This document shows positions 43,801 through 46,800 of a stretch of 64,000 nucleotides of DNA, one piece after another; the first letter of the stretch is position 1, and every line of letters begins with the position of its first letter. Origin of the DNA: Escherichia coli (lineage in GTDB: Bacteria > Pseudomonadota > Gammaproteobacteria > Enterobacterales > Enterobacteriaceae); NCBI RefSeq assembly GCF_003019035.1, contig NZ_CP027447.1. The stretch is one strand, 5' to 3'. A program made the position numbers.

Positions 43801-46800
43801 AACCGCGTTTAATTCATCAATAACCGGGGTTAACAGAGTGCTGAAAGCAGAAAGTAAATACCCCCCGCTCGGTGTTATTTTCGGTTAATTCATCCAGTAC
43901 CGTTTTTAATTCAAGCGCCCTGATTAATGCATTCTCAGAATGAATAAGAACATCGAAAGGGATTTTATCCATGGTTTACATCCTCCGGTAATTTTCTTCT
44001 GTAACGCGCCTCTGCCACATATTCCGCATAGTCCGACGCAATATTGAGAATATCGCTACCCGTTCCTGAATGTTCGGCGGTTTCCAGTAAAAAACATGCA
44101 GCTTTTACCATGTCAGCAACACATAACAGCGCAATATCTGTATCTTCCGGTGCGCCATCAAATTCCTGTTTCAGGGCATTAAAACGATCATCACGCATAA
44201 CCCCCCCCATTTTCACAATCAGCAATCAGGATAGCCCTGGCCTCATTCAGTGCCATATCAGCGGTAAGCTGTGCGTAAGCCAGCGAATGCGGGATTATTG
44301 CCCCTGTATATTCCGGCTCTCTGGTAATGTGTTTTTCTGCGGTTGCTGCCGTGCATGAAATATCAATCAGCGCGTGCATCAGCGTTCTGATAGCTTCGGC
44401 GGCTGCGTCCGGACGTGGGTTATTGCACATGTCTCACCCCCTGACGAATACGGGCGGCGAATACCATCACGCAGCCAGCCGGGGATTGCTGGCGGGCTTC
44501 CTGTTCGCTGGTGGCCTCGATGTGAATTACGCGCGGTTGTGCCGTGCTCAGGGCGATAAAACGCCAGATAAAATTGTTCTCGCATTTCTGAATAAACAGC
44601 GTGTTTTCTTCGCGCCCTTTCCATGTTGCCGAGATATAGCCCATGTCATTGAGCATCTCGCAGGCATCAACCAGCGTATCGGCGGCTACGTGTACAGTGT
44701 TTTTACCGTCAGCTATGCAATCACGGTGCACCGCCAGGAAGGTGTATATAAATTTAGGGTGAGTTTGGGTATGCTGTGTTCCAGCCATAATCGTTACTCC
44801 TGTTAACGGTTTGGTTAGAAGCCCCGTTACTGCTCCAACAGTGCGGGGCTTCGTCGTTTCAATTGCTGAATTGCATGTATCAGCCCTTGTGGTATTCAGA
44901 TTACATTTTGGTGAATACCATTTCAAGTCTTTTTTGGTATTCACTTTTGTATTACACTGCATCCCGTTATTAATCGGAGGTGCAAACATGTCCACGAGTT
45001 CTGTTAACAATAAGTCACAGCAACTGAATGCCAGATTTCCACATGAAGTAGTGAGTGGCATTGAGGCATCCCTACAGCCAGGGGAAACTAAAGCGAATTT
45101 TATAGTTACGGCTGTGCGCGGTGAAATCGCCCGCCGCCAGGCAGAAGGAAGCGGAGAAAATCCCCTGGTTTCTTCGCTCGATGCGCTGGCGCAGGTGGAA
45201 AAAATCGGAGTCAAAGCTGCCGAGGAGATCGGGCAGCTCGTCACCGTCGCACGTGAAGAACTCCAGCGCCGCAAGGCCAAAGAATCAGAATAATAACTAT
45301 CATCGCCATGGTGTGAGGAACTCCGGCGCATTGCTTTACAGGTACACAGAATGACCAACAAAGAATCAACCAATACACCATCACCGGCACGGAAAATACG
45401 GCGCAGAAAGATAGAGCATGAATCAGAAAGATTCGCGCCATGTGCTTTTGCCCTTGAGCAATTCCTTAAAGAGTACAGGGAAACGCGCCCATTGCAGGTA
45501 TGGAAACGTAACGAACCAAAAGGTTGATGTATGACCAGGAAGCAGACAGATAACAAACCATTGCTACCAGAAAATAAATCAGCAGGATTCTTACCTGAAA
45601 AAATTCTGCATGAGATCAAACGTCGCCAGCGACGCAAGGACAAAGAGCAGGAATAGCCCCACCGGAATTTTTTTCCGGTTACGCTTTGCCCACCAGCCGT
45701 AAATGTGGCATTGTTGGTTATGCTCATGCGTTGGGGATAACGTGTAGCTTGTGTCAAGGGGCCACCGTAGCGGGTGGCCTTTGTTTTGCCTGTTATCCTG
45801 AAACTATGGTCATTTCGACCACGGTTGATATAATCCCCCCGCACAGATTCATTTTTTGCGCAGTAGGTTAATTGTTCGCAAGGGCGCTCCGGTAACGGGG
45901 CGCTTTTTGTTTTTACCCACCAGCACAATAAAAATCTTCATTTTCCATTTTTGTAAAATTTCATGCTTTCCGGACGACTGGTCATATGTCATTTTTTAGC
46001 AGAAGATTTTGCCTTGCTGGTGGGTAGCTTCCCGGTCAACACGATGTACCGTATAATCAACACCGCGTGTGGTTACTGAATACGCTCACCAAAGTAAAAC
46101 TCAGGCTGGTATTCACGTATCAGCCTTTTTTCTTCTTCCTCCAGCTCACGCTTTTTGCGCTTACATGCCTGTAGCTCCCTCCCCTTCTCACTGGCACTTA
46201 TCTGGTATTGCTCTTTGCGGCGGGAAAAATCCTGTAATGCGCCCCACGGGATACCATAAGCCCCCGTTTTTCTGATACCCGGTATCACATTTCTGAATAC
46301 CCAGTTACTGAAACGATGGGCGAACGTGCCAGGCGTCGTTGCTTTGCGGCTGCGGGCTATTAGTTTGTAGAAACCTGACTCAGAGATAATGCTCATATTC
46401 TGATTTCCTCCGGGGGTGTAAGTTAAATTTACTCCCTTTTCATCATCATCAAGCATCTGCAACGCCGTACGCGAATTGGTCAGCTCCAGCGCAGCGCAAA
46501 CATCCTTTGCAACAAACCACGGATCGCCGTTCAGATACACCACGCGAACGTTCACACCATCAAAGCGCAGAACGACCAGATCACGAATATCACAGAATTT
46601 TTTCACATGACGTGCGTCACCCTTGCCCGTCACGGCAATATTTTTATTCATCGCTTTCTACCTCACATACAAAAAACCCCGCATTGCGTGGTGCGGGGTT
46701 GTCGGTAATTACTTATTGGCGTTTTTGTATGGGCTGTTTACTTCCTTTACTCCTGGCGGATGCATAACCCACCAGAGCACATCAGAGAGCAACCAGGAAA

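Follow-up and report, generated by a model that had tools for sequence, protein, structure and literature searches.

The N-C junction and its poly-G run

We analysed a 64,000-nucleotide (nt) stretch of the Escherichia coli contig NZ_CP027447.1 (assembly GCF_003019035.1), referred to throughout as the window, which carries a satellite island resembling phage-inducible chromosomal islands of the capsid-forming type (cf-PICIs). In the early operon of this island two small genes, here called N and C, meet at an uninterrupted run of eight G residues. The features that make up the junction are the following.

33600..48510 (approximate), minus strand: cf-PICI-like satellite island of ~15 kb, inserted in a prophage terL and extending from TerL (34087..35748) to the integrase (47250..48509).
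44191..44430, minus strand: gene N, a helical-hairpin protein of 79 amino acids (aa), phrog_5146, ending in ...CENGGGYA and a stop; identified from stand-alone homologues and a structure model.
43965..44198, minus strand: gene C, a helical protein of 77 aa, phrog_24341, starting MRDDRF; identified from stand-alone homologues.
44201..44208, minus strand: poly-G run 1 (G8; C8 on the plus strand), with an A on both flanks; identified in the sequence itself.
44191..44198, minus strand: 8-nt stop/start overlap ATGCGTGA, holding the stop of N and the start of C; the same geometry is found in the relatives L060-L062, L067 and L068.

The original prediction described the plus-strand C8 at 44201-44208, an overlapping pair of minus-strand open reading frames (ORFs) and a single 154-aa frame created by removal of one G, and all of these were confirmed in the sequence. 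The minus-strand junction reads GAAAAT-GGGGGGGG-TT-ATGCGTGA, and the two ORFs overlapping at the G8 span 44191..44430 (79 aa, from an ATG) and 43965..44225 (86 aa, if begun at a TTG). Run 1 occupies the 3' end of N, where a change in its length alters the reading frame. With G8, N ends in GYA at a TGA stop within ATGCGTGA and the two proteins are separate, the junction codons being TAT GCG TGA / ATG CGT GAT. With G9, N instead receives the tail LCVMIVLMP before its stop and reaches 86 aa next to a 77-aa C; both G9 and G11 keep the genes separate with an altered N tail. Deletion of one G, giving G7, joins N to MRDDRF... in a continuous frame of 154 aa, and addition of two, giving G10, produces a fusion of 155 aa. 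All three outcomes, the two alternative tails and the fusion, are met among natural loci.

The position of the start codon of C determines how the two genes are joined. A start at the TTG would imply a 35-nt overlap with N, compared with exactly 8 nt for the ATG at 44198-44196. Because the starts called in homologues by the Prokaryotic Genome Annotation Pipeline (PGAP) and those of distant relatives agree on this ATG, located 2 nt past the run, it is likely to be the start of gene C. Run 1 encodes the Gly tail of N and probably doubles as the Shine-Dalgarno (SD) element of gene C. The predicted pairing of the G run with the anti-SD is -10 to -12 kcal/mol, as against -13.6 for a consensus SD and -10 to -15 for the junction SDs of relatives (duplex energies computed on trimmed sequences), suggesting that gene C would retain its own initiation signals in every allele. 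The ATGCGTGA overlap, a predicted SD within N and stand-alone relatives of both N and C together give the junction the hallmarks of a coupled overlapping gene pair, and translation of C is presumably coupled to that of N. The small genes of the early operon are chained by stereotyped stop/start overlaps throughout this region (ATGTGCAATAA, ATGCGTGA and ATGGATAA, 43965-44644).

A run of this length is not unusual by itself. In dinucleotide-preserving shuffles of the window (n=100), G8/C8 runs occurred 2.35 +/- 2.06 times per window and at least once in 78 of the 100 shuffles; the C8 at 44201-44208 is the sole G/C run of at least 8 in the window. The significance of the run therefore comes from the comparison of homologues and not from the rarity of a G8.

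Database searches placed the proteins without assigning them an activity. Pfam gave no match for the N or C proteins even at E <= 10, NCBIfam and PADLOC gave none for N, C or the neighbouring protein, and Foldseek against the PDB returned only generic helical hairpins at E > 1. Among PHROGs, the locus matches solely families without known function, of which three are held for it: the fused protein, N alone and C alone. An AlphaFold2 model of the fused form folds residues 9-73 and residues 96-146 each into a helical hairpin (predicted template modelling score 0.43), with confidence lowest in the linker, where the run is translated (predicted local distance difference test score <50 at residues 76-78). 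The model fits a protein of two modules on a flexible Gly tether.

Run length varies recurrently between strains

Comparison of homologous islands, one of the checks that the original prediction had proposed, showed that run length differs (G7-G11) rather than being uniformly G8. We assembled 87 loci from BLAST homologues and a gapped-pattern search, the latter adding 51 IMG/VR and 28 metagenome loci. The run is G8 in 35 of these, G7 in 24, G9 in 15, G10 in 4, G11 in 2 and interrupted in 7, and the fused frame is present in 28 of the 87 (32%). Seven E. coli BLAST homologues by themselves carry G7, G8, G9, G10 and GGTG6. Among metagenome contigs G8 is modal (17/28), and exact-core matches in complete E. 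coli genomes comprise 371 with G7, 163 with G8 and 94 with G9. Some IMG/VR entries are old drafts in which homopolymers may be miscalled; the complete genomes and the metagenomes give the same spectrum. The junction is carried by ~740 of 5,426 complete E. coli genomes, and about 230-235 of the complete genomes with G7 belong to the O157:H7 clone. The exact proteins of the window recur widely, the 79-aa protein on 258 contigs and the 77-aa protein on 69, and 10 contigs carry this N allele with the tail produced by G9. An exact-pattern scan of species-representative genomes found no junction, and from its distribution the junction appears to be a strain-level accessory feature of Escherichia.

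Run length also changes on backgrounds that are otherwise invariant. When loci were clustered by identical gene flanks (458 nt), five of the seven clusters contained mixed run lengths, for example 7/7/7/7/7/9/8 and 9/7/8/7/7/8/8. Loci L002 and L029 have no mismatch in 3000 nt of flank (0/3000), yet one carries G7 and the other G8. These mixed lengths on identical flanks indicate that the run changes much faster than point substitutions accumulate. The ~230 complete O157:H7 genomes (L004) are 100% identical over 661 nt including a G7, and O55:H7 strain TB182A (L097) has otherwise identical sequence with a G8 and two annotated genes, so that a single-G slip separates the two lineages. Within the O157:H7 clone the run is stable at G7. 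The slipped-strand variation suggested in the original prediction is thus supported between strains, where G7 to G11 occur and islands with identical flanks differ in length; fast switching within a clone finds no support in the ~230 O157:H7 genomes, all with G7. The run would best be described as a mutational hot spot over strain-divergence times, as opposed to a site of demonstrated high-frequency phase variation.

Distant relatives place N and C in separate genes. An exhaustive HMMER search recovered only 49 relatives, of which the ones with 38-70% identity are, with few exceptions, separate proteins, either of 72-84 aa (residues 1-76 of the fused protein) or of 75-77 aa (residues 78-153), the C-type relatives beginning at the position of M78 of the fused protein. 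In the DNA of N homologues (L060-L062) the gene ends in ...GHA, HHA or DHA before the stop and is joined to the next gene through an 8-nt overlap of the ATGNNTAA type, with GGAGG or GGGGG located 6-8 nt upstream. In L061 and L062 the gene that follows bears no relation to C, and in L060, where C is absent, N is followed directly by a homologue of the third gene of the window. C homologues in turn follow unrelated genes, which they overlap by ATGCTTGA or ATGTATGA (L067 and L068; junction sequences caggggggtaaacATGCTTGA in L067 and cggagggctggtcATGTATGA in L068). The distant relatives therefore show the 8-nt overlap geometry without a long G run. Because they carry each gene separately and with other partners, N and C are ancestrally independent cassettes. 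The two-gene junction with G8 represents the canonical, ancestral geometry, and the fused forms are derived.

Within the family of junction carriers, distances in N and C are correlated at r = 0.50, with some pairs of loci showing 1 versus 74 mismatches in the two genes, and alleles of N and C have recombined freely. Positions -42 to +38 relative to the run show next to no diversity, leaving ~80 nt almost invariant. Small genes of the early operon are also shuffled as cassettes among the relatives (L060-L062, L067 and L068), where their neighbours differ. By this comparison the conserved junctions of the small genes look like recombination points.

A second poly-G run and the surrounding island

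The genes on either side of N and C, and a second G run in the gene that follows them, are listed below.

43765..43972, minus strand: next small gene (MDKIPFDVLIHSENAL..., phrog_2196), frameshifted in the window to a 51-aa ORF at 43817..43972; the intact form has 68-69 aa.
43861..43866, minus strand: poly-G run 2 (G6); the in-frame lengths are G5 (68 aa) and G8 (69 aa), and G6, G7 and G9 are frameshifted.
44420..44644, minus strand: Icd-like gene, overlapping N by ATGTGCAATAA; matches NF033153 at 71 bits against a cut-off of 25 and agrees with the PGAP annotation of homologues.
43460..43759, minus strand: DUF4222-family gene of the same operon; from homologue annotation and phrog_285.
42048..43463, minus strand: RepA-type helicase/primase-like replication gene; from homologue annotation, phrog_2850 and primase/helicase PHROGs.

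Runs 1 and 2 lie ~340 nt apart in adjacent genes. The G6 of run 2 truncates the next gene of the window to 51 aa. Run 2 lengths implied by alignment spans in 14 complete genomes are G5 in one, G6 in two, G7 in five, G8 in three and G9 in three, placing the gene in frame in just four of the 14; a survey of viral contigs provided two further loci only. Across 395 kb of family loci, runs of at least 7 on the coding strand consist of 65 G runs and 0 C runs. On the upstream side, a 502-aa ORF with a TTG start (44420-45928, minus strand) is a mechanical artefact. Its last ~74 codons (44420-44644) are the Icd-like gene, and the remaining part overlaps a divergent stretch with an ORF on the plus strand (44811-45293).

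Along the direction of transcription, from high to low coordinates, the island encodes an integrase, two helix-turn-helix (HTH) regulators, a BRO-N protein, the Icd-like protein, N, C, the third small gene, the DUF4222 protein, the RepA-type helicase/primase, SSB, HK97 capsid, protease, portal, connector, HNH, TerS (P27 family) and TerL. This gene content, with an integrase, a regulator and a primase-replicase together with the island's own capsid, protease, portal, connector, HNH, TerS and TerL, is that by which cf-PICIs are recognised. TerS P27, connector, HK97 portal, protease and capsid had NCBIfam matches that exceeded the cut-off, and integrase-domain matches fell below curated cut-offs; HNH, TerL and HTH were named through the annotation of a 97%-identical element in KFu019 and the helicase/primase through PHROGs. 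The structural genes of the island are full length, and the tail and lysis genes of the window belong to the flanking prophage. The island splits the terL of this resident lambdoid prophage, leaving the N-terminal part to the right (48479-49672) and the C-terminal part to the left (32834-33559), and the same interruption is annotated in E. coli KFu019. No direct repeat of at least 12 nt was found at the island ends.

Two further observations concern the island end and its surroundings. Six copies of TAACCCGC are clustered in ~150 nt (33853-34005) at the left end of the island just past its terL, three on the minus strand followed by three on the plus strand. There are 8 copies in the whole window, versus 1.59 expected by chance, and the cluster is a possible iteron, packaging-site or origin array. 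The chromosome around the island is that of E. coli (yedA, dcm, hchA, hprRS, msrPQ and zinT). Core genes at 1-14000 of the window (yedA-dcm and hchA-zinT) share only ~95-97% identity with the complete E. coli genome that matches best, a rather large divergence for core DNA of this species, and the ompC-like region is highly variable.

Explanations of the variable junction

We consider it probable that the G8 marks the junction of two ancestrally separate, coupled small genes in a cf-PICI-like early operon, and that the window displays the normal two-gene state. The run would supply both the Gly-rich C-terminal tail of N and the SD for C. At G8, N would stop at the TGA in ATGCGTGA, with the 8-nt overlap usual in this gene array; at G7 or G10, N and C would be joined by a flexible Gly linker into 154 or 155 aa; and C would keep its own SD and ATG in every run-length state. 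Homopolymers slip during replication, and changes of one G in either direction would be expected to recur on a between-strain timescale. Slippage is the presumed mechanism of the variation, and the fused protein is presumably tolerated functionally.

Several points weigh against this explanation. An uninterrupted long G run persists in lineages that are ~24% diverged elsewhere, even though GGN codons and an SD of the GGAGG type could stand in for it, and this persistence could reflect selection for mutability rather than tolerance. The fusion is fixed in O157:H7 and may be advantageous there. Homopolymer miscalls in IMG/VR drafts could inflate the apparent recurrence of length changes. Lastly, the start codon of C, the use of its SD and the coupling of the two genes are predictions.

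If selection does act on mutability, the junction could be a C-terminal contingency locus, where a satellite population toggles between separate N and C, a tail-altered N and the N-C fusion, and run 2 switches the next gene ON and OFF, thereby diversifying satellite-helper or satellite-host interactions. We regard this as unlikely. The recurrence of length changes on identical backgrounds, the two variable G runs in neighbouring genes ~340 nt apart, the excess of G over C in long coding-strand runs (65 to 0 in 395 kb) and the retention of a pure run across diverged lineages are all consistent with such a locus, but the run does not vary among ~230 clonal O157:H7 genomes, all G7. Moreover, the in-frame fraction is near a random third at both run 1 (28/87) and run 2 (4/14), an outcome that neutrality fits equally well. 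E. coli is proficient in mismatch repair, and the slippage rate of its G7-G9 runs should therefore be orders of magnitude below that in Neisseria or Campylobacter. A full satellite contingency module, with two slippage-prone poly-G runs of which run 1 toggles separate, tail-switched and fused forms and run 2 turns the next gene ON or OFF, is in our view quite improbable. If true, it would create heterogeneous satellite populations that hedge against differing helper phages or host backgrounds, and it would be the first homopolymer phase variation described for a phage satellite and for an E. coli background proficient in mismatch repair.

The anatomy of the junction does fit a known pattern of C-terminal phase variation with fusion to a downstream coding sequence, described for N. 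gonorrhoeae NGK_1211/NGK_1212 (PMC5320596) and H. canadensis HCAN_0660/0661 (PMC2823697); a poly-A fusion in N. meningitidis pglB2 is cited in PMC5320596. As in NGK_1211/1212 and HCAN_0660/0661, the upstream coding sequence carries a homopolymer at its 3' end, the reading frames give either of two tails or a fusion, and run length depends on the strain. Unlike those systems, the present one belongs to a phage satellite in mismatch-repair-proficient E. coli, its run doubles as the predicted SD of the downstream gene so that C can be made in all states, and it is invariant in ~230 O157:H7 genomes, with a rate that appears to be evolutionary in scale and not one of 1e-3 to 1e-5 per generation. 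Poly-G phase variation is also known in Enterobacteriaceae, from rmpA of hypervirulent Klebsiella pneumoniae, where a G10 run causes ON/OFF truncation with a demonstrated phenotype and within-population switching (bioRxiv 10.1101/2025.09.12.675794). The two cases share a host family, a poly-G tract encoding a flexible linker between two modules and recurrent changes across the phylogeny; here, in contrast to rmpA, G7-G9 predominate, the outcome is fused versus separate proteins, and the variation is known from comparison between strains. Overall, the locus is a fresh example of the known class of C-terminal phase variation and gene fusion.

The junction also resembles the coupled overlapping genes of phages and satellites. 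The ATG of C lies within the 3' end of N, the 8-nt ATGCGTGA overlap is preceded by a G-rich predicted SD inside the upstream coding sequence, and the same geometry is seen at neighbouring junctions and in relatives. Ordinary coupled junctions have an SD of mixed sequence, whereas the predicted SD here consists of 7-11 uninterrupted G residues, and the junction is mutationally unstable as a result. In its integrase, AlpA-type HTH, primase/helicase, HK97 capsid, protease, portal, connector, HNH, TerS and TerL, and in its size of ~15 kb, the island resembles the cf-PICIs, whose architecture was defined with SatelliteFinder in PMC10085698 and whose prototype is EcCIEDL933. The literature searched describes no variable homopolymer runs in the small-gene array of cf-PICIs, and our search found no paper that links PICIs with homopolymer variation. 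The left module is common to ordinary PICIs, and so some N-C carriers may be PICIs.

Programmed recoding, another of the original suggestions, would have G8 (or G9) strains make a set fraction of fusion protein by +1 (or -1) ribosomal frameshifting or by RNA-polymerase slippage. A homopolymer does sit at the meeting point of the two frames, no stop interrupts the fusion frame, and other strains have the fused protein as a genuine product. Recoding sites, however, normally hold a fixed out-of-frame arrangement, and here the in-frame, +1 and +2 states are all frequent. The 161 nt around the run fold no better than shuffled sequences (z = -0.26), an Rfam search of the region gave sub-threshold noise only, and gene C has its own predicted SD and ATG as well as free-standing homologues. 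Bacterial transcriptional slippage is documented mainly at A/T runs. We consider recoding at this junction highly improbable.

The original prediction had also allowed for a pseudogene or an assembly error, that is, a single 154-aa gene broken by a true frameshift or by a homopolymer miscall, a view to which the fused 154/155-aa form seen across many genomes, some of its alleles (P0001, P0002) sharing 98-99% identity with the window's, and the genuine frameshift of the adjacent gene at another G run lend some colour, but which is largely refuted and retains very little probability: the premise is reversed by distant homologues in which N and C are separate genes with other partners, G8 recreates their conserved 8-nt overlap, PGAP calls two coding sequences and no pseudogene, and a miscall is contradicted by the exact split proteins on 258 and 69 contigs, by the modal G8 of short-read metagenome assemblies and by the lack of coding indels in the window's core genes relative to the closest complete genome.

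The preferred explanation, a mutable junction between two coupled genes, accounts for an inconsistency in annotation. Records of the same locus give either a single gene of 154-155 aa or a pair of 77 and 79/86 aa, and ~14% of complete E. coli genomes are affected, the whole O157:H7 clone among them. The junctional poly-G run explains these differences and warns against labelling the split form a pseudogene. The junction can further be viewed as a natural, repeated experiment in gene fusion and fission, which suggests that the two small proteins act together. Should the runs turn out to switch quickly while satellites replicate, the conflicts between satellite, helper and host would gain a new layer of variability.

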